Source: Elusimicrobiota bacterium (GTDB lineage Bacteria > Elusimicrobiota > Elusimicrobia > UBA1565 > UBA9628). From it: a stretch of DNA of 64,000 bases. The position numbers were made by a program, and so were the translations under genes. The stretch lies in assembly GCA_016207605.1 (NCBI GenBank), contig JACQPJ010000059.1, positions 1,238 to 65,237 on the forward strand. The letters run 5' to 3'. How positions within the stretch are numbered: position 1 is the first letter of the stretch; the number at the start of each line of letters is the position of its first letter. Below, piece after piece: positions 4,554 through 52,246 of this stretch. The notes under the pieces were generated by a model. The model did no database searches. It saw nothing but the letters and a program-made list of their open reading frames with translations, and had not been told where the DNA came from.

Positions 4554-5487
4554 GGCCACGCGCGAATCCTTCGGCGAGGCGCTCCTGGCGATCGCCGAGA
4601 AGAACCCCGACGTGGTCGTGCTGGACGCGGACCTCTCCAAGTCCACGATGACCCAGCCCTTCCTGAAGAAGTTCCCCGAGCGCCACTTCGAGCTGGGCAT
4701 CGCCGAGCAGAACATGGTCGGCGCGGCCGCGGGCCTGGCGCTGTCCGGCAAGATCCCGGTCCTGACCTCCTTCGCCTGCTTCGTGACCGGCCGCCTGGAG
4801 ACCATCCGGATCTCGGCCGCCTACAACCGGACCAACGTCAAGATCGTGGGCACCCACGCGGGCATCGGCATCGGCGAGGACGGCACCTCGCAGATGGGCC
4901 TGGAGGACGTCGCGGCCATGCGCGCCCTGCCGCACATGACCGTGCTCCAGCCCGCCGACGACGCCGAGACCCGGCAGGCCGTCGCTTGGATGATCGAGCA
5001 CGAGGGCCCCGTCTACCTGCGCCTGACCCGCCAGAAGATGCCCGACGTCCACGGGCCCGGCTACCGGTGGGAGCTCAACAAGATCGACGCGGTCTTCGAG
5101 CCGGCCAAGAAGCCCGCCAAGCACCAAGCCACCATCATCGCCTCCGGCGGTCCCGTGCCCTGCGCCGTCGAGGCCGCCAAGAGCCTGGAGGCCAAGGGCT
5201 TCGCCGTGCGCGTGGCCAACGCCTCGACCCTCCAGCCTTTCGACGGCGAGGCCGTCGCGCGCTTCGCCGCGGACTCCCAGCGCCTGGTGACCGTCGAGGA
5301 CCACAACGTCCACGGCGGCCTGGGTTCGGCGGTCTGCGAGGCCGCCGCCGAGCGCGGCCTCGCCGTCCCCGTCGTGCGCGTCGGCCTGCGCGACTTCGGC
5401 GAGTCCGCCTCTCCCGATGAACTCTACGAGAAGTACGGCCTAGCCGCGCCCGCGATCGCCGAGGCCTGTCTTAAAAATCTGGGCTGA
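4546..5487 (+). CDS. tkt: transketolase, C-terminal subunit
   Basis: ATRESFGEAL, DADLSKST, GIAEQNM, GEDGTSQ, VTVEDHNVHGGLG; overlaps the N-terminal subunit gene. Confidence 0.95.
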   Translation: MPKATRESFGEALLAIAEKNPDVVVLDADLSKSTMTQPFLKKFPERHFELGIAEQNMVGAAAGLALSGKIPVLTSFACFVTGRLETIRISAAYNRTNVKIVGTHAGIGIGEDGTSQMGLEDVAAMRALPHMTVLQPADDAETRQAVAWMIEHEGPVYLRLTRQKMPDVHGPGYRWELNKIDAVFEPAKKPAKHQATIIASGGPVPCAVEAAKSLEAKGFAVRVANASTLQPFDGEAVARFAADSQRLVTVEDHNVHGGLGSAVCEAAAERGLAVPVVRVGLRDFGESASPDELYEKYGLAAPAIAEACLKNLG

Positions 5488-15016: not shown

Positions 15017-15711
15017 GCGCTTTCTCCTGACGTCCTGGTTCGCCCCGCCGCTATAAGATCGGGACGCTTGCGCCGCGTCGAGGCCAGGGCGGCTTGGCGC
15101 CGCCAGGCCCGGATCTTGGCATGGTCCCCGGAAAACAGCACCTCGGGGGCCTTGCGGCCGCGCCAAACGCGCGGCCGCGTGTACTGCGGAAAATCGAGCA
15201 GGCCGGACGCGAACGACTCGTCGGCCGCGGCCTCGTCCTTCTTGAGCACGCCCGGAATCTTGCGGACCACGGCGTCGGCCACGACCAGGGCGGGCAGCTC
15301 CCCGCCGGTGAGGACGTAGTCGCCGATGGAGAGCTCCTCGTCGAACAAGCGCAGCGCGCGCTCGTCGACCCCCTCGTAGCGCCCGCAGACGAGCACCAGG
15401 CGCTCCCGCTGGGAGAGCCGGACCGCGGCGGCGTCGTCGAAGGTCACGCCCTGCGGCGATAGGAAGATCACCGCCGCGTCCTTGGTCCTCACGCGGCGCA
15501 CGGCGCGAGCCAGGGGCTCGGCCATGAGCACCATGCCGGCCCCACCGCCGAAGGGGCGGTCGTCGACGCGGCGGCGCTTGTCCGCGGAAAAATCGCGCGG
15601 GTTGACGCAGCCCCAGGACAGCAGCCCCTTGTCCCGGGCGCGGCCCAGGATGCCGGCGTCCATCACCGGGGGGAACAGCTCCGGGAACAGCGTGACGAAG
15701 TCGATGCGCAT
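15013..15711 (-). CDS. trmD: tRNA (guanine-N1)-methyltransferase
   Basis: [48 protein letters not shown]. Confidence 0.98.
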
Positions 15712-15884
15712 CTAGGCCTCGACCCGTTGGGCTCGGCACAGGTGTGCTGAGGAAAGGTTCATAACACCTAGGCCTCGACCCGTTGGGCTCGGCACAGGTG
15801 TGCTGAGGAAAGGTTCATAACACCTAGGCCTCGACCCTTCGGGCTCGGCACAGATGCGGCCGGGGAGAGCCTGGTCGCATCTAG
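15712..15884. repeat. three tandem CTAG-bounded double-hairpin units (56, 56, 57 bp)
   Basis: CTAG at 15712, 15768, 15824, 15881; units 1 and 2 identical, unit 3 has a variant second hairpin. Confidence 0.92.
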
Positions 15885-16108
15885 TCGATCTCCACGACCG
15901 CGTGCCGGCCGGCCTTCTGCGCCGCCACGCCCACCAGGGCGCGGATCGCCTTGATCACCTTGCCCTGGCGGCCGATGATCTTGCCCTTGTCCGCCTCGTC
16001 GACGATGAGCTTGAGGACGGAGGCGTCGCCGTCCCGGCTCTCCTCGACGCGCACCGCGTCGGGCCTGTCGGCCAGGCGGGAGACGACGTAGAGCGCGAGC
16101 TCCTTCAT
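15881..16108 (-). CDS. khpA: KH-domain RNA-binding protein
   Basis: MKELALYVVSRLADRPDAV...DKGKIIGRQGKVIKAIR; 75 aa between rpsP and trmD. Confidence 0.93.
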   Translation of the reverse strand: MKELALYVVSRLADRPDAVRVEESRDGDASVLKLIVDEADKGKIIGRQGKVIKAIRALVGVAAQKAGRHAVVEID

Positions 16109-16112
16109 CGGC

Positions 16113-16373
16113 TCACTTCGGCGCGGCGGCCTTGCGCGCCGCCTTGACCAGAGCCTCGACGGTCTCGGACGGCCTGGCGCCGACCTTGATCCAATGCTCG
16201 TAGCGCTCGTTCTTGAGCGCGATCTTGCGCCCGGCGGATTCCTCGCGCGGGTTGTAGGTGCCCAGCACCTCCACGGGCTTGCCCGCGGCCGCGCGCGCCT
16301 TCTCGATGGCGACGACGCGATAGTAGGGCTGGTGCGGCTTGCCCGTGCGCTGCAGTCTGATGACGACGGCCAT
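16113..16373 (-). CDS. rpsP: 30S ribosomal protein S16
   Basis: MAVVIRLQRTGKPHQPYYRVVA...EVLGTYNP...W...GARPSETV. Confidence 0.97.
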   Translation of the reverse strand: MAVVIRLQRTGKPHQPYYRVVAIEKARAAAGKPVEVLGTYNPREESAGRKIALKNERYEHWIKVGARPSETVEALVKAARKAAAPK

Positions 16374-16391
16374 GTGTTTCCTCCGTTGCTT

Positions 16392-17078
16392 CTAAGTCTG
16401 CGAAGCCTTGGCCGCGAACGCGGCCCGGGCCCGGGCCTCGAGGGCGCGGAACGCCGCGGCGCAGTCCGGCGCGCCGAAGACGGCCGAGCCCGCGACCAGG
16501 CTGTCGGCGCCCGCGCCGGCCGCGGCCGCGATCGTGGACGCGCCCACGCCCCCGTCCACCTGGATCCAGCAGTCCAGGCCGCGGGCGTCGACGGCGGCGC
16601 GCAGGGCGGCCACCTTGGGCAGCATGTCCGCCATGAACGCCTGGCCCCCAAAGCCCGGCTCGACGGTCATGACCAGGGCGAGGTCGCAGGAGTCCAGCGC
16701 GGCCAGCAGCGGGGCGACGGGAGTGCCCGGCTTGACCGCCAGGCCCGCCCGCACGCCCAGGCCGCGCACGGCCGCCAGCGCCGCGGCCGCGTCCGCCACG
16801 GCCTCCTGGTGGATGGTGACGAGGTCGGCCCCGGCCCGCGCGAACCACGGCGCGGCCGCCAGCGGATTGGAGACCATGAGGTGGGCGTCCACGAAGAAGC
16901 CGCGGGACTTGGCCAGGCGCGCGAAATCGGGGCCGAAGCTGAGGTTGGGCACGAAGTGGCCGTCCATGACGTCCACCGAGACCCAGCCGCAGCCCGCCGC
17001 CCTGACCGCGTCGAGCTGGGCTCCGAGCCGGGCAAGGTCGCCGGCCAGCAGGGAGGGCACGACCTCCGGGGTCTTCAC
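16392..17078 (-). CDS. rpe: ribulose-phosphate 3-epimerase
   Basis: PSLLAGD, DVMDGHFVPN, DAHLMV, MTVEPGFGGQ, IQVDGG, LVAGSAVF; GTG start overlapping PASTA gene stop. Confidence 0.93.
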   Translation of the reverse strand: MKTPEVVPSLLAGDLARLGAQLDAVRAAGCGWVSVDVMDGHFVPNLSFGPDFARLAKSRGFFVDAHLMVSNPLAAAPWFARAGADLVTIHQEAVADAAAALAAVRGLGVRAGLAVKPGTPVAPLLAALDSCDLALVMTVEPGFGGQAFMADMLPKVAALRAAVDARGLDCWIQVDGGVGASTIAAAAGAGADSLVAGSAVFGAPDCAAAFRALEARARAAFAAKASQT

Positions 17079-18031
17079 AGGTCCCGCTCCTCGACCAGGA
17101 CGTCGTTGACGTAGATCTTGACCCGGCCGCCGCCCGAGGACTCGACCGGGACCTCGACCTTGGCGCCGGGCCCGCGCAGGCCGTTGAAGAGCTCCCTCTC
17201 GCCGTACCTGTCCGCCAGCAGGATGCGCACCTGGCTGTCCGAGCCCCCCGGCCCCAACTGGTAGCGGAAGGTCCGGACCGCGCCCTGGACCGCGCTCGGG
17301 CGCCCGCTGGCCGTCACCAAGATCGCGGCGTCGGGGGACAGGGCGGCGTCGGGCGCCGGGCTTTGGGTCAGCACCGTGCCGGCGGGAAACGGGGAGGACG
17401 CATCGACGCGCACGTCCACGCGCATGCCCGCGCCCGCGGCCCAGGCCTGGACGGCGCCGACGGTCTTGCGCTGGAAGTCGGGCATCAGCGTCACGCCCGC
17501 GGGCGGCGGGCCGCCGGACAAGACGAGGCTGACCAAGGTCCCCTTCTCCACGCCCGCCTCGGAGCGCGGGTCCTGGGAGAGCACCAGTCCCTTGTCCATC
17601 TTGAGCGAATAGGCCTCGCCCACCTCGCCCAGGGCGAGCTGGGACTGGCGCAGGAGCATCTCGGCGTTGCGCAGGGGCAGGCCCGCGAGGGAGGGCGTCA
17701 GCACGGCTTGCCCGCCCTGGCTGACGACGACGCGCACGGTCTTGCCTTCCCGCACCACGGTCCCGGCGGCGGGCTCCTGGCGCAGGACCGCGGCGATGGG
17801 CGCCGAGGCGTCGAACTCCGCGCCGGTCTTGCGCAGCCCGAGGTTCAAGGAGGAGAGCAGGTCCAGGGCGTTGGCGATCGAACGGCCCTTCAGATCGGGC
17901 ACGACCTGGGTCCGTCGGCTGTGCACCAATCCCTCCAGACTCCAATTGACGGCCCAGGCGGCGAACGCGCAGACGACGGCCGCCGTCGCCGCCGTCTCCA
18001 TCCACGTCGCCCTCGCGCTTTTCGTCGTCAA
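17075..18031 (-). CDS. membrane-anchored PASTA-domain protein (three PASTA repeats, no kinase)
   Basis: N-terminal TM; VVPDLKG, TPSLAG, MPDFQ repeat starts with VLRQEP/VLSQDP/VLTQSP motifs; alternative ATG start at 18001. Confidence 0.88.
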   Translation of the reverse strand: MTTKSARATWMETAATAAVVCAFAAWAVNWSLEGLVHSRRTQVVPDLKGRSIANALDLLSSLNLGLRKTGAEFDASAPIAAVLRQEPAAGTVVREGKTVRVVVSQGGQAVLTPSLAGLPLRNAEMLLRQSQLALGEVGEAYSLKMDKGLVLSQDPRSEAGVEKGTLVSLVLSGGPPPAGVTLMPDFQRKTVGAVQAWAAGAGMRVDVRVDASSPFPAGTVLTQSPAPDAALSPDAAILVTASGRPSAVQGAVRTFRYQLGPGGSDSQVRILLADRYGERELFNGLRGPGAKVEVPVESSGGGRVKIYVNDVLVEERDL

Positions 18032-18981
18032 GCCTCGCTCCCGGAAACGGGCAAAAAATCGCCCTCGGCCAAACGCAGGCCGTTGGCGAATTCCGCAGCG
18101 TTCAGCGTCTTTTTTCCCTCAGGTTGCACGTCGAGGAGCCACAGACGACTGCGGGACGCGCATTCTACCAAAATCCCGCGGCCTCGTTCAACGCGCAGAA
18201 CGCGCCCCGGGCGGCCGGTCCCGGGCGGATCCTCGGGCCCCGGCAGCGCCGCGCGCAGGACCCGCAGGGAGCCGCCGCCCCGCCGCTCCAGCCAGGCGCG
18301 CGGCCAGGCTCGGAACGCGCGCACGCGGTCGTGGAGCTCCCGCGCTGGACGCGACAGGTCCAGGCGCGCGTCCTCCCTCCGGATCAGCGGCGCCGGGCTC
18401 GCCTCCCCGGACTGCGGCCGACGGACCGCGCGCCCCGCCGCGAGCTCGGCCAGGGCCTCGTCGAGCAGGCCCACGCCGAGCGGCGTCAGGCGCTCGAGCA
18501 GGGCCGGCGCGTCCTCGTCGAGCCCGATGGCCGCCTCGCGGACGGACTGGACGGGCCCGGTGTCGAGGCCCTCGTCCAGCCAGAAGAGAGTGACGCCGGT
18601 GCGCGCCTCCCCGCGGGCCAGGGCCCACTGCACCGGCGCGGCGCCGCGGTATTGGGGCAGGACGGAGAAATGAACGTTGAGAAAACCCAGGCGCGCGGTC
18701 CTCAACACGTCGGACGCGAGCAGGCGGCCGTAGGCGACGACGACGGCCAGATCGGGGGCCAGGGCCTTGAGTTCGTCGACGGCGTCCGCCGGGCGCTCGG
18801 GCTGCAGCACGCGCAGGCCCAGCCCGACCGCCGCCGCCTTGACCGGCGTCGGCGCCAGCGCCAGGCCCCGGCCCGCGGGCCGGTCCGGCTGCGAGACGAC
18901 GGCGAGCACTTCGGTCCTTGCCGCCAGGAGGCGCAAAAAGGGAACGGCCGTCTTGGGCGTGCCGAAGAAGACGGTGCGCAT
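18028..18981 (-). CDS. fmt: methionyl-tRNA formyltransferase
   Basis: VFFGTP, SQPDRPAGRG, VVVAYG, NVHFSVLPQYRGAAP, GLDTGP. Confidence 0.96.
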   Translation of the reverse strand: MRTVFFGTPKTAVPFLRLLAARTEVLAVVSQPDRPAGRGLALAPTPVKAAAVGLGLRVLQPERPADAVDELKALAPDLAVVVAYGRLLASDVLRTARLGFLNVHFSVLPQYRGAAPVQWALARGEARTGVTLFWLDEGLDTGPVQSVREAAIGLDEDAPALLERLTPLGVGLLDEALAELAAGRAVRRPQSGEASPAPLIRREDARLDLSRPARELHDRVRAFRAWPRAWLERRGGGSLRVLRAALPGPEDPPGTGRPGRVLRVERGRGILVECASRSRLWLLDVQPEGKKTLNAAEFANGLRLAEGDFLPVSGSEA

Positions 18982-41465: not shown

Positions 41466-42347
41466 GTGGAGCGCTTGAAGGGAATCTGGAAGGTCCTGAG
41501 GCGCAGGCCCATGTCCCTGCTCGGCTGCGCCCTGGTCGGCTTCTTCCTCCTCGTCGCCGTCGCCGCGCCCCGGCTGGCGCCGCCGCCGGCGGGCAGCCGC
41601 GACCCCTACCTCATGCCGCAGAGCGGCTACAGCCCCGATCCCGTGCTCCCGTCCCAGGAGCACCGGTTCGGGACCACCGAGCAGCAGTACGACCTCTACT
41701 ACGGCATGGTCTGGGGCGCGCGCACCGCCTTCAAGGTCGCGCTCTCGGTCGTGGGCTCCGCGGCGCTGGTGGGCATCCTCCTGGGCGGCGTGGCCGGCTA
41801 CCGCGGGGGCTGGACCGACGAGCTGGTCATGCGCCTGACCGACGTGATCCTGGCCTTCCCCGACATCGTGCTGGCCGTCGTGATCGTGGCGGTCTGGGGC
41901 CCCAGCCTCCTGCACGTCATGGGGGCCGTGGCCTTCACGGCCTGGCCCTCCTACGCCCGCCTCATGCGCGGCGACGTGCTCTCGGTCAAGGAGCGCGACT
42001 TCGTGACCGCGGCGCGCGCGCTGGGCGCCTCGGACGCGCGCATCCTCCTGCGCCACATCATCCCCAACGCCATCTACCCCGTGCTGATCGTGGCTTCGCT
42101 GTCGATGGGCCGGACCGTGATCACGGCCGCGGCGCTCTCTTTCCTCGGTCTGGGCGAGCCCGCGGGCTACGCCGACTGGGGCCAGCTCATCTCGCTCTCG
42201 CGCAACTGGATCATGGGCTCCGCGGGCGACCCCTTCGCCTACTGGCACACCGTCTTCATCCCCGGAGCGGCCATCTTTCTTTTCGTGCTGGGCTGGAACC
42301 TGCTCGGCGACGCCGCCCGCGACATCCTGGATCCGCGGCAGAAATAA
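41466..42347 (+). CDS. oppC: oligopeptide ABC transporter permease
   Basis: HRFGT, RLTDVILAFP, KERDFVTAARALGA, LSFLGLG, WNLLGDAARDILDP. Confidence 0.95.
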   Translation: MERLKGIWKVLRRRPMSLLGCALVGFFLLVAVAAPRLAPPPAGSRDPYLMPQSGYSPDPVLPSQEHRFGTTEQQYDLYYGMVWGARTAFKVALSVVGSAALVGILLGGVAGYRGGWTDELVMRLTDVILAFPDIVLAVVIVAVWGPSLLHVMGAVAFTAWPSYARLMRGDVLSVKERDFVTAARALGASDARILLRHIIPNAIYPVLIVASLSMGRTVITAAALSFLGLGEPAGYADWGQLISLSRNWIMGSAGDPFAYWHTVFIPGAAIFLFVLGWNLLGDAARDILDPRQK

Positions 42348-42438
42348 ATATCTCGGCGCTTTCCCGTACGACCGCGCGTATGCGTCTCTTGCGTGAATAA
42401 TGCTTTACATTTGAGAGCGGATATGCCATCCTCCGACC

Positions 42439-43824
42439 ATGGACGCTCCGCTCTCCGTCCTGGTCGTTGAAGACGACGCGCTGGCGCGCAAGGTCCTAGC
42501 GGCGCACCTGGCCCCGCACCGGGCGGACCCCGCGCCCGACGCCGAGACGGCCCGCCGCAAGCTCGCCTCGGGCCGCTACGACATCGCCTTCATCGACCTT
42601 CAGCTCGACGCAAGCGGCGGCTACGCCGGCCTGGAGCTCATCAAGCCCGCCTCCGCCAAGGGCATCTACACCGTGGTCATGTCCGGCCACGACTCCGAGA
42701 AGTGCGTCGAGCGCGCCTACGAGCTCGGCTGCGACGACTTCTACGCCAAGGGCAACGAGCAGGACAACGTCGGCCGGGTGCTGGCGCGCTTCCTGGAGAG
42801 CCGCGACGGCGCCCGCAGGGAGCGTTTGTTCACCGAGCGCTTCGTCACCGGGGACGCCGACACCCGCGCCGCCGTCCTGGCCGCGCTGGAGTACGCCCCC
42901 TCCGAGCTGCCCATCCTCCTCCTGGGCCCCTCGGGCACCGGCAAGACCAGCCTGGCCCGCGTCATCCACGACCACTCCGGCCGCAAGGGGGGGTTCGTCG
43001 CCATCAACTGCTCGGCCTACACCGAGGACCTATTAGAAGCGGAGCTCTTCGGCTACCGCAAGGGTGCTTTCACCGGCGCCGGCGAGAGCCGCAAGGGCAA
43101 GCTGCTTCTGGCCGACCAGGGGACCCTGTTCCTAGACGAGATCGGCGCCATGAGCCTCAAGATGCAGACCAAGCTGCTCAAGGCCATTGAGGAGCGCTCC
43201 TTCTACCCGCTGGGCTGCGACCGGCCCGAGACCTCGCAGTTCCGCCTCGTCAGCGCGACCCTTGAGGACCTGCACGGCCTGATCAAGGGAGGCAGGCTGC
43301 GCTTCGACTTCTTCCAGCGCATCCACGGCTTCACCCTCAAGCTCAAGCCCCTGGCCCAGCGGCCCTGCGACATCCTCCCTCTCGTCGCCTTCTTCACCAA
43401 GGGGGCGCGGCGGCTGTCGTTCTCGGCCGAGGCCAAGGCCAGGCTGCTGGCCTGCCCCTGGCCGGGCAACATCCGCGAGCTCAAGAAGTTCGTGGACCTC
43501 TTGGAGGCCGGCCACGAGGGCCGCGTGGGCCCCGAAGCCGTCGAGCGGCTCCTGGCGGCCCTGCGCGTGGAGCAGGGCCCCGAGGGCTTTGCGAGCGACG
43601 AGCAGTACCGCTTCGCCCTGAGCCGGGGCCTCAACGAGGCGGTCGACCGCTTCATCGACGTCCTCATCCAGCGGAGTCTATCCGACAACGGGGGCAAGAA
43701 GACCAAGGTCCTCGACGACATGAAGATCTGCACCCGGCTGCTCTACACGTCCCTGGCCCGCAGCGGACGTCCGCCCCAGCCCAAAGAGGCCAAGGATGAG
43801 CGCGAGCTCGAAGAAGTCGCTTGA
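42439..43824 (+). CDS. sigma54-dependent response regulator (NtrC family)
   Basis: REC (VLVVEDD, FIDLQL), AAA+ (GPSGTGKT, GAFTGA, LFLDEIG, WPGNIREL), C-terminal Fis-like HTH. Confidence 0.95.
   Translation: MDAPLSVLVVEDDALARKVLAAHLAPHRADPAPDAETARRKLASGRYDIAFIDLQLDASGGYAGLELIKPASAKGIYTVVMSGHDSEKCVERAYELGCDDFYAKGNEQDNVGRVLARFLESRDGARRERLFTERFVTGDADTRAAVLAALEYAPSELPILLLGPSGTGKTSLARVIHDHSGRKGGFVAINCSAYTEDLLEAELFGYRKGAFTGAGESRKGKLLLADQGTLFLDEIGAMSLKMQTKLLKAIEERSFYPLGCDRPETSQFRLVSATLEDLHGLIKGGRLRFDFFQRIHGFTLKLKPLAQRPCDILPLVAFFTKGARRLSFSAEAKARLLACPWPGNIRELKKFVDLLEAGHEGRVGPEAVERLLAALRVEQGPEGFASDEQYRFALSRGLNEAVDRFIDVLIQRSLSDNGGKKTKVLDDMKICTRLLYTSLARSGRPPQPKEAKDERELEEVA
43724..43809 (+). repeat. 86-bp direct repeat, copy 1 (3' end of the NtrC gene)
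   Basis: Matches 49414-49499 with one mismatch. Confidence 0.95.
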
Positions 43825-44011
43825 GAGCCTGATCCACGACGTCGGCTCGAAGTGCGCTTCCCTCAAGAGCGCCGCCGCTCTGTTGAAATCCGCCTCACCG
43901 CAGGAAACCAAGGAATTGTTGGCGTTGATGGCCCAGCAGGCTAAAAGCCTTGCCGAGACGATTCAGAACTTTAGGATGCAATCAGAACATGAGCGGCGGG
44001 CTTTTCACTAA
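43796..44011 (+). CDS. small protein with a histidine-kinase H-box-like (DHp) motif
   Basis: 71 aa; LIHDVGSKCASLKSAAALL resembles HisKA H-box helices; overlaps NtrC 3' end. Confidence 0.6.
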   Translation: MSASSKKSLESLIHDVGSKCASLKSAAALLKSASPQETKELLALMAQQAKSLAETIQNFRMQSEHERRAFH

Positions 44012-45095
44012 TCATATGGGCACAAACTGGTTGCAGGACTCCATCATTGGCGGCCTTCTCAAATTCACGGGCAGCCAGAAATTTCTGACGGCACAACTTA
44101 ACATAACAAACGCCTGCAATCTAAGTTGCGTCCACTGCTATCACGCACACCATTCCAACGCAGGTGCTTTAGATTTCCAAGGATGGCGAAGCATTCTTGA
44201 TCAGTATGAACGACTTGCAAAGAAGCTCTACTTAAAGCCCTTTTTTGTTATTTGTGGAGGGGAACCAACTATCAGCTCCCTGTTCATACCCATGCTCAAG
44301 GAATTAAACTCAAGATGGCCTGGTGTGAGGGTAGACGTTCTTACTAATGGGACACGACTTGCTAGAGGATTTACGGAGTCCCTTAGACAGTTCAATCTAG
44401 GCATTCAGATTTCTCTGGACGGTCCTGATAGAGAAAGACATGATCTTATTCGCGGGCATGGAAGCTTCGATCAGACTCTCAGCGGGCTCAACAATCTGCA
44501 AGAGGCGGGATTAAACGCATGGTTTCTTGCAACGTTATCCCATCGGACTTCATTGTGGATCGAAGACTTCTTTAAGATGGCAGCAATATCCGAAGTAGAG
44601 GGAATGAATTTTACGCGATTTATTCCTGAGGGAACTGGACGCCTGCTAGAAGAAAGTCATGCGGATCGACCGCTCTCAGGAGTTGATCTGCGGGATACTT
44701 ATGCAGCTATTCTTAAATCTTCCAAGGGAACGGGGGTCGCTACCAATACAAATGGCCCATTGTTTCACCTCATTGATTCCAATCTTGGAGCCAATGGTAA
44801 AGCTGGATTCCAAGGGTTGATTATTGACTATAAGGGAAACTTAAAGTTTTCAAGTCGTGTCGATTTCAAGCTCGGCAATATCTTGGAGGAAGGTTTAGAG
44901 AATTTATTTCTTGGCCATCCTCTCATGCGGGCTCTGCGGAACAGAGAGATTGAGGGATGCGGCACGTGTGTTCACTACGAACATTGCGGAGGCGACAGAA
45001 ATGCCTCTTTTGTCGCTACTGGAAGCTTTCTTAAGAAGGACCCTGGTTGTTGGTTGGACACCGCGCCTCAGGAGGTTGTATGCCGAAAAAAATGA
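43989..45095 (+). CDS. radical SAM protein with SPASM-type C-terminal domain
   Basis: CNLSCVHC (Cx3Cx2C), CGGEP, VLTNG, ISLDG, C-terminal CGTCVHYEHCGGDRNA...DPGCW; start uncertain (43950/43989/44015). Confidence 0.93.
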   Translation: MSGGLFTNHMGTNWLQDSIIGGLLKFTGSQKFLTAQLNITNACNLSCVHCYHAHHSNAGALDFQGWRSILDQYERLAKKLYLKPFFVICGGEPTISSLFIPMLKELNSRWPGVRVDVLTNGTRLARGFTESLRQFNLGIQISLDGPDRERHDLIRGHGSFDQTLSGLNNLQEAGLNAWFLATLSHRTSLWIEDFFKMAAISEVEGMNFTRFIPEGTGRLLEESHADRPLSGVDLRDTYAAILKSSKGTGVATNTNGPLFHLIDSNLGANGKAGFQGLIIDYKGNLKFSSRVDFKLGNILEEGLENLFLGHPLMRALRNREIEGCGTCVHYEHCGGDRNASFVATGSFLKKDPGCWLDTAPQEVVCRKK

Positions 45096-45238
45096 AACGT
45101 TGCGGATTGTTGCTGTTGGCGATGATGCCGATTGCATCAGTTGCGTTTGCGGCCAAGGCAGCGCTTAGTATCGCGCAGCTTGGAAAAAAAGGCGTCACGG
45201 ACATTGAATTATATTCATGTTCGTACGACAGTAAATAA
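45080..45238 (+). CDS. 52-aa secreted peptide (candidate precursor/signal)
   Basis: AGGAGG at 45070-45075; MPKKMKRCGLLLLAMMPIASVAFA|AKAALSIAQLGKKGVTDIELYSCSYDSK; overlaps rSAM stop. Confidence 0.65.
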   Translation: MPKKMKRCGLLLLAMMPIASVAFAAKAALSIAQLGKKGVTDIELYSCSYDSK

Positions 45239-45353
45239 AACAATCGGGCGTTTTGTTTGCGAAGGAGCCCCTCCGCCGTCATTTCTGCTCATATTACGGC
45301 GGAGGGGCCTCTTAGACTATAGGGCTTCGTGTTGAATGTAGGATTGGAATTTA

Positions 45354-46925
45354 TTGAAAGCACAAGAATATTTTTTCAATTTTCGGGGCAAGTGGTTGCT
45401 CCTACTTGTCTTCGGTGTAATTTTTATTGCCGGCAAACTATTGATAGAGAGGCATCATGTGGTAACTACGACTAAGACTTTGCTCGTTGGAATCCCGGGC
45501 TATTGGGGAACGGTTGTGCCTCCATTGCAACATTCCGCTTATGGTTCCGCTGTATTGGATAACCAATTCGAACCTTTGGTCCGACGCGGACAGAATGGAT
45601 TAATCGAACCCTTGGCTGCCATATCCTGGGAAGTCAGCCCAGATAATTGCGTATTTCGATTTAAGATCGACACAAAACGACGATTTTCCGATGGTTCAAG
45701 CTTAAGCGCTACAGACTTTAAGAGATCTTGGGAAAACGGGCTTCGCATGCAAGCTAAATCCAACAATAAGGCTGTGGAAGATGCTCTTTACACCGTTAAA
45801 GGCTTCGCAGCATTCGCCGAGAAAGGGACAATTGAAGGAGTCCGGGTTCATGGGCATGACTTATTGGAGATTGAGTTTGACAAACCTGTACGTGTCGCGT
45901 TGGAGTATTTGGCCGGTGTTCGCTATGCCGCCTATAAATTTGTCGGGAATCGCCCAATTGGTACCGGTCCCTACGTCATGGAGGAGAAGGACAATGAGTT
46001 GTTTTTAACTCCCAATACATACTACACAGGGAATGAACCGCGATTCGATAAAATCAAAATTGTAGTAGCAGCTCCAGAGACTGTTGAAAAGAAACTTCAA
46101 TCAGAAGAGATTGATGTGCTGATCTTTGCGGAGCGGACACATATGCCGGGATGTCTTGATGAGTCAGCGGGCAAAATTCGATGCGCTTTCAGCCAGGAAG
46201 CCTCTCATGTTTCTATTGACATCAATGGCTTGCGCGGACGGATTTTCTCCAATCGCAAGTATCGGCTGGCCCTGCAGGCCCTGGTCCACAAGAAACTGGA
46301 AGAGATCGGCTTGCCCAAAGAACTTCAAGCAGGCCATTTTACTTCAGACTCCCAAAGCTTCTTGAAATTTCAATCGGGCAGGCTGTCAGATACTGAGGTA
46401 GGAGAAATCATACGACTCGGGCGCAAATACATTCCTGAGCTTGTAGAGGCTTCGCTGAGGACTCCTGTTTATTTGGTTTCTGCAGATGAATGCCGGTGGC
46501 TGATCACCATTTTGCACGATGAAGGAGTGAAAATTGCCGAGAACTCGGGAAGGACCGAATTCTCCAAAATGCTCGAAATGGAATATAAAACTTACGAACC
46601 GGATATTATCCTGGGCAGTTTCTCTGTTTACAACGGTGATCCTGATGGACTCTATCATTTGCTTGGGAAACATGGGTCCATCTTTTCTCCTATGATGGAT
46701 AGAGAAGGCATAGGAGACTTGTTAGACGCAGGGCGTGAGATCATGGATCGAAATTCATTGGCTCCTCACTATGAGAAATTAGCCCGAGTCATCTTAAAGG
46801 AAGTCCCCTATGTTCATCTAGGCTATACCGCTAGAGTGATCGCTTACAATTCAGATAAAATTCGCGTCAATGATAATTTCATCAGTAGGGACTACCGTCG
46901 ACTAACGATATTAGAGCCCCGATGA
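45354..46925 (+). CDS. family-5 solute-binding protein without a permease partner (probable sensory receptor)
   Basis: N-terminal TM anchor, FEPLV, RFSDGSSLSATDFKRS, IGTGPY, DPDG; TTG start; ATGA-coupled to the kinase. Confidence 0.85.
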   Translation: MKAQEYFFNFRGKWLLLLVFGVIFIAGKLLIERHHVVTTTKTLLVGIPGYWGTVVPPLQHSAYGSAVLDNQFEPLVRRGQNGLIEPLAAISWEVSPDNCVFRFKIDTKRRFSDGSSLSATDFKRSWENGLRMQAKSNNKAVEDALYTVKGFAAFAEKGTIEGVRVHGHDLLEIEFDKPVRVALEYLAGVRYAAYKFVGNRPIGTGPYVMEEKDNELFLTPNTYYTGNEPRFDKIKIVVAAPETVEKKLQSEEIDVLIFAERTHMPGCLDESAGKIRCAFSQEASHVSIDINGLRGRIFSNRKYRLALQALVHKKLEEIGLPKELQAGHFTSDSQSFLKFQSGRLSDTEVGEIIRLGRKYIPELVEASLRTPVYLVSADECRWLITILHDEGVKIAENSGRTEFSKMLEMEYKTYEPDIILGSFSVYNGDPDGLYHLLGKHGSIFSPMMDREGIGDLLDAGREIMDRNSLAPHYEKLARVILKEVPYVHLGYTARVIAYNSDKIRVNDNFISRDYRRLTILEPR

Positions 46926-48985
46926 TCGATCTGAAAGCCTGGATCAATAGTAACGCAAAACAACCACTTATATGCGCAATCAGCGCCGCCATTTGCCTGC
47001 AAGCAGGGTATCTCGTCCATCTAGCTCATGATCATTACTCGGCTCAAATCCACCGTATCGAGCGTGTAGTCCAGACCGCAAGCCTTGGAGTCCAACAGGC
47101 TAATAGGCCACTTGTTGAGTCGGCTCTCATTGCGAGCTTGCATAATTCAGATGCCGTTCAAGTGGCTTTATGCCAGGGAACCAAAGCGGACTTAAGGTAC
47201 CCACTCTCAAACAACGATCCATGTCAGACCGCACCCAAAGGAATTTTTCATTGGACAATTCGAATCCCGGCAATTGGAGTGGCAGGGCATGATTTCGTCT
47301 TCGTGGTCAATAGACTGGATATCTTTGCCTCATTAATGGTGTTGGTCGCCATAACCGCGCTGCTATCCCTGACTATGGTTTTGATTCTTATCCACATGCG
47401 TAGGAAGTTCGAATCGGAAGTCCTCGAGCCGCTTTATCATGGGCTCGATCAGGAGAAGCCGTTGGAGATATCCGAATTAGATGATATTAGGCTCAAAATC
47501 CATGAGCATCATGCGCTAAATCAAAAGCGAGCTGTCTCTGAAGCTCTCTTCGAAATGAGCGCTCAAGTCGCGCATGACATTCGCTCTCCCCTAGCCGCCC
47601 TGGAAACGGTAGTCAAGGATGTTTCCTCATTGCCTGAGAATCACCGGATCATCGTGCGCAGCGCCGTCAGCCGTATACGAGACATTGCCAACAGCTTGCT
47701 TGATAGACGCCGAGAGGCGTCTGGTTCGCAAGTTGCTCAGGTTCAATCTGCTATTGCAGAACCTGTAGCAGCCTGCTTGCTTTCAGGTCTCCTTGACCCG
47801 CTAGTTACTGAAAAGCGCTTGCAATTCCGTTCCCGCATTAATGTCGAGATAGACTTGCGTATGGATGAATTTTTCTGCGGCCTCTTCGCCAAGGTTCAAC
47901 CTGTCGAGTTTCAACGAGCTGTTTCCAATCTAATCAACAATGCGGTCGAGGCGCTGAAAGAGAAAGGAACTGTTACAGTTAATTTAAAGTCTTCGGATAA
48001 TGAGATTCTTATAGAAGTCAGCGATAACGGCGAAGGCATCCCACCTGAAATACTGGCTAATCTGGGCCAAAGAGGCGAAACCCACGGTAAGACCGGGGGC
48101 TCGGGCCTTGGACTTCACCACGCAAGAAGTTTCGCTGAATCTTGGGGCGGGCGGCTTGAGCTTGCGTCCCAAGTCGATAAGGGCACTACTGCTACCATAG
48201 TCTTGCCGCAAGCTTCCGCGCCGGAATGGTTTATATCGCAGCTCTTATTTGAACCGGGGCAGACTGTCGTGATCCTGGATGACGACACCAGCATCCACCA
48301 AGTGTGGCAAGGGCGGCTGGATTCCTTGTGCTCCGCTGGTACCATTCAGGCCATTCATTTCTCGACACCCCAGGAACTTATTAAATGGGTAGGGGAAGAC
48401 AGGGTCAGGGCGCAGGCTGCCTTATACTTGCTCGACTATGAACTTCTGGGCTACAAGGAAACAGGCTTAAAACTTTCCGAGACGCTTGGACTTGGCAAGC
48501 AAACGATCCTCGTGACAAGCCGCTATCAAGAATCTGGCATTCTGGAATGCTGTCGTAAGCTCAAAGTTCGGATGATCCCAAAGGGGCTGGCGGGGCTGGT
48601 GCCTATCCGAATGCGCTGGGTCACGGGACAAGATAATTCAGACAAAATTGATGCCGTTCTCGTTGACGATGACCCATTAGTCCGTGCGACATGGGCTTTA
48701 ACGGCAACCAAGGCGGGGAAGCAGTTGGCGGTATTTTCTTCAGCCGCAGAGTTTTGGGGCGCAATGGCTCGTATTGGTCGCTCCACTCCGATCTATTTAG
48801 ACCAGGAGCTTGGCGACATCGTAAAAGGGGAGAAGCTTGCAGCGCAGTTAAACGGGCTGGGGTTTGCTGAAATCTACTTGGCAACTGGACATAAACTTAC
48901 CCTTGTAAAAACGCCCAATTACATAAAAGGGATTGTCGGCAAGGAGCCGCCTTGGGTGGTTGAAGAAATAGGTGCAACAACTTGA
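46922..48985 (+). CDS. membrane hybrid sensor histidine kinase with two REC-like domains
   Basis: Two TM segments; H box AQVAHDIRSPL; N box NLINNAVEA; G1 DNGEG; G2 GSGLGL; REC-like VVILDDD..LLDYEL and VLVDDD..YLDQEL. Confidence 0.92.
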   Translation: MIDLKAWINSNAKQPLICAISAAICLQAGYLVHLAHDHYSAQIHRIERVVQTASLGVQQANRPLVESALIASLHNSDAVQVALCQGTKADLRYPLSNNDPCQTAPKGIFHWTIRIPAIGVAGHDFVFVVNRLDIFASLMVLVAITALLSLTMVLILIHMRRKFESEVLEPLYHGLDQEKPLEISELDDIRLKIHEHHALNQKRAVSEALFEMSAQVAHDIRSPLAALETVVKDVSSLPENHRIIVRSAVSRIRDIANSLLDRRREASGSQVAQVQSAIAEPVAACLLSGLLDPLVTEKRLQFRSRINVEIDLRMDEFFCGLFAKVQPVEFQRAVSNLINNAVEALKEKGTVTVNLKSSDNEILIEVSDNGEGIPPEILANLGQRGETHGKTGGSGLGLHHARSFAESWGGRLELASQVDKGTTATIVLPQASAPEWFISQLLFEPGQTVVILDDDTSIHQVWQGRLDSLCSAGTIQAIHFSTPQELIKWVGEDRVRAQAALYLLDYELLGYKETGLKLSETLGLGKQTILVTSRYQESGILECCRKLKVRMIPKGLAGLVPIRMRWVTGQDNSDKIDAVLVDDDPLVRATWALTATKAGKQLAVFSSAAEFWGAMARIGRSTPIYLDQELGDIVKGEKLAAQLNGLGFAEIYLATGHKLTLVKTPNYIKGIVGKEPPWVVEEIGATT

Positions 48986-49090
48986 GGAAAATTGTCTGGA
49001 GTCGAGTTCGTTGGCTACAACCTGAAGTATATTCTCTGTTTTGAAAATCTCCTCGGAGAAGCTTACCACCTGTAAGACGCTCAGTTGTTT

Positions 49091-49413
49091 GGCTCATGAC
49101 AGATTTTTGTGAACATGGACCCAGCCCCACGGGGAAAACACGCCCATCCATGGGGTGCAGACTTGGATGATTTTCAGCCGCATGTACTCATCGTCCCGGA
49201 AGCCATAGGCCCGGCGAATGAGATTCTTGGCCTTGAGATTGGTCGCTTCGATGTATCCCAACGATACCCGTTTGTCGCAGCAGGCAAGGATGCCGTCGAA
49301 GTGAGAGTCCACCATGCGGGCGAACTTGTGGTAGGGCTTGAGCCGGCTCCACTTGAGCTGATCGACCCAGGCGTTGAAGAAGCGCCACGCGCAGGTCTTG
49401 GATTTGTAGGTCC
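49091..49413 (-). mobile_element. ISL3-family transposase 3' remnant with terminal end
   Basis: W...LKWSRLKPYHKFARMVDSHFDGIL...LGYIEATNLKAKNLIRRAYGFRDDEY is ISL3-type C-terminus; GGCTC end at 49091; 5' part replaced by the direct repeat. Confidence 0.82.
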
Positions 49414-49499
49414 AGATCTGCACCCGGCTGCTCTACACGTCCCTGTCCCGCAGCGGACGTCCGCCCCAGCCCAAAGAGGCCAAGGATGAGCGCGAGCTC
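49414..49499 (+). repeat. 86-bp direct repeat, copy 2
   Basis: Matches 43724-43809 with one mismatch; followed by truncated mini-gene start (MSASSRE then stops). Confidence 0.95.
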
Positions 49500-49537
49500 T
49501 CGCGAGTGATAAGGCAAGGAGCCCCCGTGGGGAGAAA

Positions 49538-50122
49538 GTGCGATTAGCTGAGCGCCAGACCGTCCATCGTTTTGGCGGAAACCAGTGGTTGTATCATCAG
49601 ATTCCAGATGTCTTCGCCGGTGAGGTTCTATATCCCCTTAATCAATTGGTTGAGATTGCTCCGGAGGTCGCCAAGGTGGCGAAACGAAAATATGAGGGGC
49701 GAGAACATCTGATGAATGTGAGGCTTCCGCTTTTGAACTGCCTGTGGAACGACGTCTTGCATCTTAGTCCGATCCATCCTTCGAGGATCCGAGACGCGCT
49801 CATGGAGACCGGCTGTCTGCGGCAAGCGGATATTAAACCCCGACGTTTTTTTGTCATCGCTCCTGAAGGGTTAGAGCCCAGGCAAACGCTCTATTTCCAA
49901 AACTCTCATGATACCGGCTATAAGTATGATTTTCTGGAGAGCGACTTCGCTTTCTTCGACTTCCAACGCTATCGTGAATTGGCAGCGGTTCCTGACGAAC
50001 AATTTGGATACTTCATTCAAATGAAGGACGCGCAGAAAACTCCATTGCTTTGGGCGCGCACGCCCCATGTGTTTTATCGCGGGGCCATCCGCATGGCAGG
50101 TCTAGAGATCATCGATTGGTAG
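49538..50122 (+). CDS. conserved hypothetical protein
   Basis: GTG start with GGGAG upstream; LYPLNQL..KYEGRE..LNCLWNDVLHLSPIHP looks like a conserved family motif; low GC. Confidence 0.7.
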   Translation: MRLAERQTVHRFGGNQWLYHQIPDVFAGEVLYPLNQLVEIAPEVAKVAKRKYEGREHLMNVRLPLLNCLWNDVLHLSPIHPSRIRDALMETGCLRQADIKPRRFFVIAPEGLEPRQTLYFQNSHDTGYKYDFLESDFAFFDFQRYRELAAVPDEQFGYFIQMKDAQKTPLLWARTPHVFYRGAIRMAGLEIIDW

Positions 50123-50138
50123 GCAAGGAAAACGAATC

Positions 50139-50543
50139 ATGAGAAAACTCAAACCTGCGAAGGAAAATAAAAAATCGCGCATGATGGATCGTCTTTACGG
50201 GACCGGTTATTCGGAGGAAGTATTTCAACAACTGGAAAAACTCGATCCGGCATTCAACGATATTGTTCAACAATTCGCCTATGGCGAGATATGGGCGCGT
50301 AGCGGTCTAAGCATTCGCGATAAGAGTTTGGTGACCATTGCGGCTTTGATCGCGCTGGGTAAAGAAGAACAAACCAAGATCCATATACGTGGATTTTTGC
50401 GCTCAGGCGGTACTGTTGCGGAACTTAAAAGCGTGCTGATCCATCTTGTCGTTTATTGCGGATTCCCTGCGGCAATGAACGGATTCTCCGCTTTGCAAAT
50501 CGTTTTGGAGCGGATGCGCAATGAACATTATGAACGGCAATAA
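50139..50543 (+). CDS. carboxymuconolactone decarboxylase (CMD/AhpD-like) family protein
   Basis: FAYGEIWARSGLSIRDKSLVTIAALIALG...IHIRG...YCGFPAA. Confidence 0.9.
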   Translation: MRKLKPAKENKKSRMMDRLYGTGYSEEVFQQLEKLDPAFNDIVQQFAYGEIWARSGLSIRDKSLVTIAALIALGKEEQTKIHIRGFLRSGGTVAELKSVLIHLVVYCGFPAAMNGFSALQIVLERMRNEHYERQ

Positions 50544-50641
50544 GCGCCAGATGAAGGACTTCGCGGGCTAAACATGAGGGGGGACCAGGAATCCTTGCGG
50601 ATTTGCGAGTTGGCGTCTTGGCGTCTCGGCGGTTCATCGTT

Positions 50642-52246
50642 GTGACGTTGAACGGCCTTCTCGACCGGGCCGCCCAGGAGGGGGGAGAGCGGACGGCGCT
50701 GATCGCGGGAGAGCGCGAGGTCTCCTTCGCGGACCTGCGCCGCGAGGTCCTCTCGCTGGCCGAGGGCCTGCGCCGCGCCGGCGCCGCCAAGGGCGCCCGG
50801 CTCGCGATCGTCCACCGCAACGCGCCCGAGTTCGTCGCCGCCTATTTCGCCGCCCTGCGCCTGGGCGCCATTGCCGTGCCGCTCAACTTCCTGATCCACA
50901 AGCCCGACGAATTGGCTTATCTTCTCAACGACTGCGGCGCCTTCGGCGTCGTGACCCAGGCCGAGTTCCTGCCCGGCCTGAAGGCGGCGGCCGCGCGCTG
51001 TCCGGCCCTGCGCGCCCTCTGGGTCACGGACCGCGCGCGCCATCACGAGGGGGACGAATTGGTCAAGCCGTTCGCCGATCTGCGCGGGCCGGCCGCCGAG
51101 GAATTTAATGCCGACGCCGCGTCGGCCGAGGACGTCGCCGCCGTCCTCTACACCTCCGGCACGACCGGGCGCCCCAAGGGCGCCATGCTCACCCACCGCA
51201 ACCTCGTCTCCAACTGCGCAAGCTCCCTGCGGCGCATGGGGCTGACGCGCCGCGACGTCTCGGTCTGCATCCTGCCCATGTTCCACAGCTTCGCCTGGAC
51301 CGGGCTGGTGCTCGTCTCGCTGCGCCTGGCCATCCCATGCGTGATCGCCCACGCCGTGGCGCCGGCCAAGCCCTGGCTCCAAGCCATGGGGCGGCACGGC
51401 GTGACCCTTATTGCCGCCGTGCCCCAGGTTTACGCGGCCCTGGCCCGCGAGGCCAAGAGCTTCGAGGTCCGCTGGTTCCTGCGCCTGTGGGCCTTCCGCC
51501 GCGTGCGCGTGGCCGTCTCCGGCGCCGCGCCCCTGCCCGCGGCCACGGCCCGCGCCTTCGAGGCGGCCGTGGGCGTCCCCATCCTGGAGGGCTGGGGCCT
51601 CACCGAGACCAGCCCCGTGGCGACCGTCAACCCGCCCGGCCGCGCCAAGCCCGGCAGCGTGGGCCCTGCCATCGACGGCGTGCGCTTGAAGGTCGTGGAC
51701 GAGGAGGAGCGCGAGCTGCCCGTCGGCCAGGACGGCGAGATCTGCGTGCAGGGCGAGAACGTCATGAAGGGCTACTGGGGCCTGCCCGAGGACACCGCCG
51801 CGGCCTTTACGAAAGATGGGTGGTTTAAAACGGGCGACATCGGCGCGCTCGACGCGGACGACTACCTCGCCATTCACGACCGCAAGAAGGACATGGTCAT
51901 CGTCAAGGGCCTCAAGGTCTTCCCCGCGCAGGTGGAGGCGGTGATCGCCGAGCACCCCGACGTCGCCGAGTCGGCCGTCATCGGCGTGCCCGATTCCCTG
52001 GGCGACGAGACCCTCAAGGCCTTCGTCGTGCCCAAGAGCGGGCACGCGCCGGAGAAGGCGGAGCTCCTGCGCTTCTTCAAGGAGCGCCTCGACCACTACA
52101 AGCGCCCGCGCGACGTGGAGCTCGTCGCGGAGCTGCCCAAGAACGCCCTGCACAAGGTGCTCAAGCGCGTCCTGCGCGAACGCGAGCTCCAGAAGCGCGG
52201 CATCAAAAGCGTGAACCACGAAGACGCAAAGAATGTGGGGAACTGA
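50642..52246 (+). CDS. long-chain fatty-acid--CoA ligase (AMP-binding family)
   Basis: LYTSGTTGRPKG, EGWGLTET, FKTGDIG, DRKKDM, P.NALHKV; start uncertain (ORF from 50603). Confidence 0.93.
   Translation: MTLNGLLDRAAQEGGERTALIAGEREVSFADLRREVLSLAEGLRRAGAAKGARLAIVHRNAPEFVAAYFAALRLGAIAVPLNFLIHKPDELAYLLNDCGAFGVVTQAEFLPGLKAAAARCPALRALWVTDRARHHEGDELVKPFADLRGPAAEEFNADAASAEDVAAVLYTSGTTGRPKGAMLTHRNLVSNCASSLRRMGLTRRDVSVCILPMFHSFAWTGLVLVSLRLAIPCVIAHAVAPAKPWLQAMGRHGVTLIAAVPQVYAALAREAKSFEVRWFLRLWAFRRVRVAVSGAAPLPAATARAFEAAVGVPILEGWGLTETSPVATVNPPGRAKPGSVGPAIDGVRLKVVDEEERELPVGQDGEICVQGENVMKGYWGLPEDTAAAFTKDGWFKTGDIGALDADDYLAIHDRKKDMVIVKGLKVFPAQVEAVIAEHPDVAESAVIGVPDSLGDETLKAFVVPKSGHAPEKAELLRFFKERLDHYKRPRDVELVAELPKNALHKVLKRVLRERELQKRGIKSVNHEDAKNVGN

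Follow-up and report, generated by a model that had tools for sequence, protein, structure and literature searches.

A 64,000-nucleotide (nt) stretch of contig JACQPJ010000059.1, from the metagenome-assembled genome (MAG) of an Elusimicrobiota bacterium (assembly GCA_016207605.1), carries a low-GC set of putative signalling genes between two copies of an 86-nt direct repeat, and it raises the question of whether this repeat delimits an exchangeable cassette or arose in some other way. The whole 64,000-nt stretch is referred to as the window. The repeat reproduces the junction of a gene for an NtrC-like sigma54 activator with a small gene directly behind it (the mini-gene, encoding the mini-protein), and the genes between the copies encode a radical SAM (rSAM) enzyme, a short peptide, a periplasmic binding protein and a hybrid histidine kinase, HK(1) (Table 1). 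An earlier note on this DNA had proposed that the signal and receptor genes form a specificity cassette, bracketed by the repeat and able to excise by recombination between its copies. We conclude instead, with a probability of about 0.6, that copy 2 is a scar without function, left by illegitimate recombination in a mosaic island that is decaying, because it does not bound the foreign DNA and because two truncated genes flank it.

Position of the repeat within a mosaic insertion

The two repeat copies are identical at 85 of 86 positions, as had been noticed before, and differ only at nt 33 (G in copy 1, position 43756; T in copy 2, position 49446). Across the genome (60 contigs, 1.44-Mb MAG) the exact 32-nt and 53-nt blocks are confined to these two sites, which excludes a chance origin. 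Copy 1 rebuilds the 3' end of the NtrC-like gene and leaves that gene intact, as an att-type duplication would. The ATG of the mini-gene lies inside the repeat, and in copy 2 it opens the short frame ATGAGCGCGAGCTCTCGCGAGTGA (MSASSRE*), which bears out the aborted gene start described earlier. The end of copy 2 together with the filler that follows it (49486–49513) contains a near-palindrome, CGCGAG-CT-CTCGCG, and copy 1 ends within an 8-nt palindrome, CGAGCTCG.

The anatomy and composition of the locus were read directly. GC content between the copies is 0.45–0.54, compared with 0.65–0.75 in the flanks (400-nt windows), and the DNA between the copies is compositionally foreign. The codon profile agrees with the earlier observation of lower GC there: GC content at third codon positions (GC3) is 0.45–0.52 in the rSAM, binding protein and kinase genes versus 0.93–0.98 in the NtrC-like gene and the backbone, where the permeases span 0.96–0.98. 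In a genome-wide scan no low-GC island of the MAG is larger (7.1 kb at 0.499), and GC content is lower only in a 2.2-kb stretch of contig C55 (0.475). The low-GC DNA extends about 1.1 kb beyond copy 2, from 49500 to ~50580, through the genes for a 194-residue protein (hyp194) and a CMD-family protein. The repeat therefore does not bracket the low-GC DNA, contrary to what had been claimed; copy 2 is internal to it.

The limits of the foreign DNA were defined by synteny. On the left lies the last permease gene of a conserved peptide-uptake operon, the product of which is 67–82% identical in amino acid sequence across 20 relatives, and on the right an acyl-CoA ligase gene, the true start of which is the GTG at 50645 by alignment with eight relatives. 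These two genes are adjacent in all relatives in which both were found (13 genomes of the same genus and six of the same order); adjacency was judged by coordinates in the 19, and the distance from permease stop to ligase start is 0–25 bp in the eight that were aligned. It follows that everything in 42348–50644, the high-GC regulator included, is an insertion, and that the NtrC-like gene, which had been taken for backbone, is part of it. Both repeat copies (starting at 43724 and 49414) are internal to this insertion. Its ends share an 8-bp match, TCTCGGCG, that is not significant (52 of 500 shuffles reach it), and beyond this no target-site duplication or inverted repeats were found at the island ends. 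Nor does the island have the form of a composite transposon, since the single insertion sequence (IS) remnant, an ISL3 stump, is internal to it. The island splits the peptide-uptake operon between the last permease and the ligase, and the ligase gene may no longer be served by the operon promoter.

Table 1. Features of the insertion and its flanks (window coordinates)
Feature	Position	Strand	Remarks
Last permease of conserved peptide-uptake operon	41466-42347	+	Backbone, left flank; GC3 0.96
Mosaic insertion	42348-50644	.	8.3 kb; not present at this site in any relative examined
NtrC-like sigma54 activator	42439-43824	+	Pfam Response_reg and Sigma54_activat; no HTH match; GC3 0.94
Repeat copy 1	43724-43809	+	NtrC codons 429-457 and first 5 codons of mini-gene
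HisKA-like mini-protein, 71 aa	43796-44011	+	Overlaps NtrC stop; host-family-like to ~43972; GC3 0.74
Radical SAM/SPASM-type enzyme	43989-45095	+	Pfam; first low-GC cassette gene; overlaps mini-gene end; GC3 0.45
Putative precursor peptide gene, 52 aa	45080-45238	+	Also called in the independent Logan contig
Hairpin	45262-45313	+	Inverted repeat after peptide gene; 21-nt arms, 86% complementary
SBP_bac_5 periplasmic binding protein, putative receptor	45354-46925	+	Pfam; GC3 0.46
Hybrid histidine kinase HK(1)	46922-48985	+	Pfam HATPase_c; complete; tail ...GKEPPWVVEEIGATT*; GC3 0.52
ISL3 remnant	49091-49416	-	Intact terminal inverted repeat (GGCTCATGACAG...) and last ~105 transposase codons; GC3 0.79
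Repeat copy 2	49414-49499	+	Orphan piece of NtrC 3' end and mini-gene start
Filler, 13 nt	49500-49512	.	TCGCGAGTGATAA; read from sequence; between copy 2 and HK2 tail
HK2 tail, last 12 codons	49513-49551	+	GGCAAGGAGCCCCCGTGGGGAGAAAGTGCGATTAGCTGA encodes GKEPPWGESAIS*; overlaps hyp194 GTG start
hyp194, 194 aa	49538-50122	+	No Pfam match; low GC; GC3 0.56
CMD-family protein	50139-50543	+	Pfam CMD; last island gene; low GC; GC3 0.47
Acyl-CoA ligase (AMP-binding)	50645-52246	+	Backbone, right flank; Pfam; GC3 0.93

These limits bear on whether the 86 nt could be attL and attR, left by the site-specific integration of one island, or of several accreted in tandem, into the regulator's 3' end, with the integrase lost later in an ISL3-associated deletion. 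A duplicated gene 3' end with the gene left intact is the classical signature of integrase-mediated islands, and the repeat has this property in common with tyrosine-integrase islands; moreover, in locus L033, the closest relative of the cassette, the kinase gene is immediately followed by two genes for tyrosine recombinases. Here, in contrast, a Pfam scan found no integrase-type domain in any open reading frame (ORF) between or after the copies, in accord with the earlier statement that no integrase lies inside, and the repeat bounds the island neither by synteny nor by composition. Copy 2 lies between truncated genes and is followed by a kinase tail, not by the start of a second island, and no third copy was found when one was sought at the island's right end. 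A comparable repeat is absent from 63 homologous loci (23 loci of relatives and 40 contig loci, the latter comprising 36 metagenome and four context loci), so that the site shows no reuse there, and the sampled loci of relatives have no island at the regulator 3' end. In L033 and L058 the regulator lies within the mobile element rather than at its border. This origin is very improbable.

Truncated genes on both sides of copy 2

On its left, copy 2 abuts the remnant of an ISL3 element, the identity and break point of which were established by comparison with a complete copy. The remnant matches only positions 157–240 of the 240-position DDE_Tnp_ISL3 profile (E 3.7e-20, Pfam), in agreement with the 5' truncation reported earlier. 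The complete ISL3 in a genome of the same genus (G018:C264) is 1371 bp long, with inverted repeats and a perfect 8-bp target-site duplication, ATAAAACG, and encodes a 437-residue transposase that is 96% identical to the window fragment. At the nucleotide level the two elements are 90% identical from the terminus GGCTCATGACAG (49091) to ...GTAGGTCCAGA (49416). The stump is thus 326 bp, ~24% of the element, and its intact terminus stands 105 bp after HK(1). Homology to ISL3 runs through CCAGA, leaving a 3-nt overlap (AGA) with copy 2 at the break. Neither the opposite end of the element nor its target duplication survives here, and hence the loss reached beyond the element. An ISL3 N-terminal half on contig C52 (profile positions 1–153) was considered as the missing part of the stump and rejected because it has no nucleotide match to the G018 element. 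This half belongs to a 641-residue ORF (C52:60648–62573, minus strand) that joins an N-terminal ISL3 transposase portion (zinc ribbon, HTH and DDE region) to a Ser/Thr protein kinase domain, and its break falls at nearly the same profile position as that of the stump.

On its right, copy 2 is separated by the filler from the end of a second kinase gene, the HK2 tail, also observed directly. This tail matches that of HK(1) at 18 of 22 nt. Kinase tails of the form ...VVGKEPPW..* likewise overlap or abut a hyp194 homologue in relatives, once in G011:C56 and twice in G020:C1, and HK(1) retains its own, different tail; a second kinase must therefore once have existed. Homologues of hyp194 (51–54% identity) lie directly 3' of kinase genes in G011 and G020, and a CMD homologue (61%) adjoins a family kinase in metagenome locus L084. 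From its gene neighbourhoods, hyp194 is a conserved downstream partner of the family's kinases. Three other candidate matches failed or lacked support: the filler does not match the left end of ISL3, it differs from the sequence expected of a fold-back copy of the repeat end, and a hyp194-like gene start after HK(1) is no better than chance (50–752 of 1000 shuffles reach its score).

The order of events, the mechanism of joining and the recency of the cassette can be reconstructed as follows. The island would have been built wholly from parts of one Elusimicrobiota signalling family and inserted in the peptide-uptake operon, and in it a long-resident NtrC-like activator and mini-protein of host composition would have been fused to a recently acquired low-GC signal and receptor set. 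An ISL3 element would then have landed 105 bp 3' of HK(1), and illegitimate recombination of the microhomology type may later have destroyed most of it and whatever followed, with the 86-nt NtrC/mini-gene junction piece trapped between the ISL3 stump and the tail of HK2 with its partners hyp194 and CMD. Three histories could lead to this arrangement: (a) a tandem duplication of 43724–49416, after which most of the second copy was deleted; (b) a single replication template switch, in which the 5' part of ISL3 and adjacent DNA were lost and 86 nt were pasted in from 5.7 kb upstream; or (c) a tandem pair of systems whose regulators were nearly identical, two deletions having removed most of the second. 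With repeat copies 99% identical beside kinase tails that have diverged, history (a) or (b) is favoured. Copy 2 is without function under all three.

Scarred islands of this sort are known from other IS-bearing mosaics. The locus has in common with them a foreign composition, a position within a conserved operon, an ISL3 element cut short but still bearing one of its ends, microhomology where that element breaks off, an orphan piece of a gene plus filler at the joint, and the lack of a dedicated recombinase. What sets it apart is that the fragment caught at the joint reproduces almost exactly the end of a functional gene close by, and the direct repeat thus formed is of sufficient length for an entire signalling cassette to be deleted by homologous recombination.

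Several points weigh against the scar. A 3-nt microhomology is by itself weak evidence, the scar leaves the 13-nt filler TCGCGAGTGATAA unaccounted for, and the near-identity of the repeat copies beside diverged kinase tails is awkward for history (c). The closest relatives, which lack the island at this site, are only 82% (permease) and 69% (NtrC) identical, too distant to date the events. The linkage of the NtrC body to copy 1 and of copy 2 to hyp194, as well as the phasing of the G/T difference, come from the MAG assembly alone. Finally, exact-protein look-ups found the cassette in the sequencing run SRR12113385 but recovered no permease, upstream binding protein, NtrC-like protein, hyp194 or CMD protein, so that the outer junctions too come from the MAG assembly. 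High-GC DNA could have assembled poorly in that sample, or the linkage there could be different.

Assembly support and the prospect of excision

These last two points raise the possibility that the structure is an assembly artefact, in which the low-GC cassette of another molecule or organism was threaded in through the 86-nt sequence and a population polymorphism was split over two passes. The MAG is fragmented, a repeat of this length makes a de Bruijn graph loop, and the look-ups retrieved the cassette without the backbone or the hyp194 and CMD genes. A k-31 Logan contig assembled independently from SRR12113385 (5664 bp) is, however, 100% identical to 43780–49443; each of its ends lies exactly 30 nt within a repeat copy, as a k-31 graph requires, so that the joints of mini-gene to rSAM gene and of ISL3 to repeat exist in reads. 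This contig begins with mini-gene sequence that is 87% identical to a paralogue in the same genome, and at k ≥ 54 the single mismatch separates the two copies. A chimera is unlikely because the DNA on either side of the insertion belongs to two genes that stand next to each other in 19 relatives, improbable for a chance joining, because the low-GC hyp194 and CMD genes meet the high-GC ligase without any repeat, and because every piece comes from one gene family system. Threading through the repeat is accordingly a highly doubtful account of the locus. The MAG itself is small, 1.44 Mb at ~75% estimated completeness compared with 2.5–4.0 Mb for genomes of the same genus, and is either strongly reduced or far less complete than estimated.

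A further alternative is a cassette that integrates and loops out reversibly: circular DNA carrying one 86-nt copy would have integrated at the regulator 3' end by a Campbell-type event, and loop-out through the two copies would yield a mixture of cells that have this signal and receptor set and cells that lack it. The minimal length for RecA-dependent exchange in Escherichia coli is ~25–30 nt, which the 53-nt perfect block exceeds, and ordinary homologous recombination between the direct repeats is therefore physically plausible. Copy 1 keeps the regulator intact, and the k-31 contig, with repeat sequence at both ends, fits a circle as well as the integrated form. Such recombination would, however, delete the mini-gene and the whole cassette and leave the NtrC-like gene followed by a kinase stump, a dead end in place of an alternative cassette; this would be loss of the system, and neither a switch nor a regulated excision. 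The segment between the copies encodes no replication, transfer or recombinase gene by the Pfam scan, and its right end is a broken ISL3 and not the natural end of an element. The G/T difference speaks against frequent exchange between the copies, and such repeats occur at no other family locus sampled; a search of JGI metagenome contigs for the 53-mer likewise returned no match. We therefore consider reversible excision unlikely, and the notion of a neatly bracketed cassette does not hold, given a copy 2 that sits between truncated genes, the lack of a recombinase and the absence of a similar repeat in the 63 loci.

A modular signalling family with exchanged cassettes

The probable scar lies in a locus that, judged from its parts, is a hybrid, with a resident-type regulator pair joined at ~43973–44017 to a foreign cassette. 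Paralogues and orthologues of the NtrC-like activator within the genus are 57–69% identical to it, with up to five per genome, and it is closer to these (up to 69%) than to the regulators of conjugative elements (56%). The mini-gene is kept directly 3' of the NtrC-like gene in 18 of 41 genomes; the HisKA match of its product is weak and below the cut-off (E 0.0065, Pfam). Within it, 43829–43972 is 87% identical in nucleotide sequence to a paralogue in the same genome (C52:69717–69860). A sigma54-like gene that normally stands between the mini-gene and the rSAM gene is missing here, as is the promoter region that the rSAM gene of relatives has of its own, and this implies a further novel joint at ~43973–44017. 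No copy of the Sigma54_DBD protein was found in the 75%-complete MAG; the sole match, 28% identical, is on C52 near another sigma54 activator.

Contig C52, outside the window, also contains a second, likewise degenerate system (C52:62735–69863). It starts with the promoter and first 48 codons of an NtrC paralogue (78% nucleotide identity to 42403–42582) and continues with Haem_oxygenas_2, MFS, ATP-grasp and Peripla_BP_6 genes and a gene for a 684-residue kinase, the stop of which overlaps (ATGA) the mini-gene paralogue that is 87% identical to 43829–43972. This paralogue has an in-frame TAA and is followed by an IS5-like fragment. The upstream regions of NtrC paralogues in relatives contain repeated segments of 60–170 nt that are 81–98% identical (L019:833–927 and 4985–5079, several in L021, and L064:13886–14139), which may be shared promoter or enhancer sites of the NtrC systems.

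The cassette itself has few close relatives. The best homologues of its rSAM enzyme are 72–73% identical, the named ones all from Elusimicrobia, and the SBP_bac_5 protein is 57–61% identical to its counterparts in L033 and L034; the window's rSAM and SBP_bac_5 genes are present in only one of 40 relatives. Genes of 45–59 codons occupy the place of the peptide gene in L033, L034, L056, L057, L058 and L059. Residues 1–192 of HK(1) match only kinases of the same cassette type (39–54%), whereas its core (193–460) and C-terminus are 56–64% and 47–52% identical, respectively, to kinases of other cassette types and less similar to those of conjugative elements (48–54% and 37–42%). By these matches HK(1) appears phylogenetically mixed. 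A scan of GTDB genomes for the rSAM and peptide pattern found no close relative, and a metagenome kinase scan returned 36 homologues, none above 58% identity, with no donor identified.

Across relatives, triads of NtrC-like activator, ~65-residue mini-protein and Sigma54_DBD protein are conserved and multi-copy in the genus and order. In 19 of 20 fetched loci the NtrC-like and mini-genes are followed by a gene for a Sigma54_DBD-only protein of ~330–355 residues (examples in loci L012–L031, at L033:8762–9829 and at L058:6594–7661), and in half of the 20 a kinase 48–54% identical to the window's lies near the regulator. This regulator set is joined to at least four different signal and receptor gene sets. 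The first, found in the window and in G032, L033, L034, L058 and L059, combines a SPASM-type rSAM enzyme, a ~50-residue peptide, SBP_bac_5 and a histidine kinase (HK); the second (G002) has an rSAM-like enzyme, Peripla_BP_6 and HK; the third (G011) a B12-rSAM enzyme, MFS, TPR, SBP_bac_5, HK and hyp194; and the fourth, on the genome's own contig C52, Haem_oxygenas_2, MFS, ATP-grasp, Peripla_BP_6 and HK. The earlier idea of an exchangeable cassette on a conserved regulator is therefore upheld for the family and is not supported at this site, where the repeat is not the cassette border.

The nearest relatives of the window's cassette carry their own regulator and adjoin type IV secretion system genes. 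The complete set of NtrC, mini-protein, Sigma54_DBD protein, rSAM enzyme, peptide, binding protein and kinase adjoins TraC/TrbC conjugation genes in two places, L033 and the L058/L059 locus, and this suggests that the closest full systems are carried on an integrative conjugative element. TraC/VirB4- and TrbC-like genes, together with single-domain response regulators and, in L033, the two tyrosine-recombinase genes, occupy L033:1–6088 and 15167–18370 and L058:1–4831, beside the closest systems. We give little credence to a more far-reaching view of the repeat, in which the NtrC 3' end and mini-gene would serve as a portable homology region for the conjugative delivery of new cassettes, rewiring the resident regulator to a foreign peptide and so switching pherotype, with the 86-nt duplicate as the footprint of exchange and the cassette still gained and lost in the population.

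A literature search for this signalling system in Elusimicrobia found nothing relevant, and two known systems offer comparison. In the staphylococcal agr groups a hypervariable agrB-agrD-agrC sensor region stands beside conserved agrA and kinase domain. As there, the genes that make the signal and those that sense it vary together here, next to a conserved response regulator side, and the N-terminal sensor part of HK(1) matches only its own cassette type, whereas the core is nearer to other kinases of the family. Here, in contrast, the variation is among paralogous and orthologous loci of different species and not among alleles at one locus, the cassettes differ in enzyme class as well, the regulator is a sigma54 activator, and no allelic replacement was seen at the site. 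The likeness to agr drawn earlier thus stands for the conserved regulator and variable signal side and is otherwise loose, for want of an allelic series at a single locus of one species. The Vibrio LuxP/LuxQ-LuxU-LuxO pathway is similar by domain content, with a periplasmic binding protein, a hybrid kinase, a putative small phosphotransfer-like protein and an NtrC-type sigma54 activator. It differs in that the mini-protein here is HisKA-like, with no HPt fold by any test, the putative signal is a radical-SAM-modified peptide, and relatives of the window system add the Sigma54_DBD paralogue.

The structure around the repeat is what horizontal transfer, IS insertion and illegitimate recombination ordinarily produce, and a dedicated excision device is no longer suggested. 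Its context, a modular and partly conjugative signalling family, is of more interest than the repeat. Uncultured groundwater Elusimicrobiota have a multi-copy family of putative cell–cell signalling systems, some of them on conjugative elements, in which a core of sigma54 activator, mini-protein and sigma54-like paralogue is kept and the signal and sensing genes are swapped among at least four designs. The window contains a natural hybrid of a resident regulator and a foreign cassette, and in it the question of whether rewiring of this kind yields a functional circuit takes concrete form.

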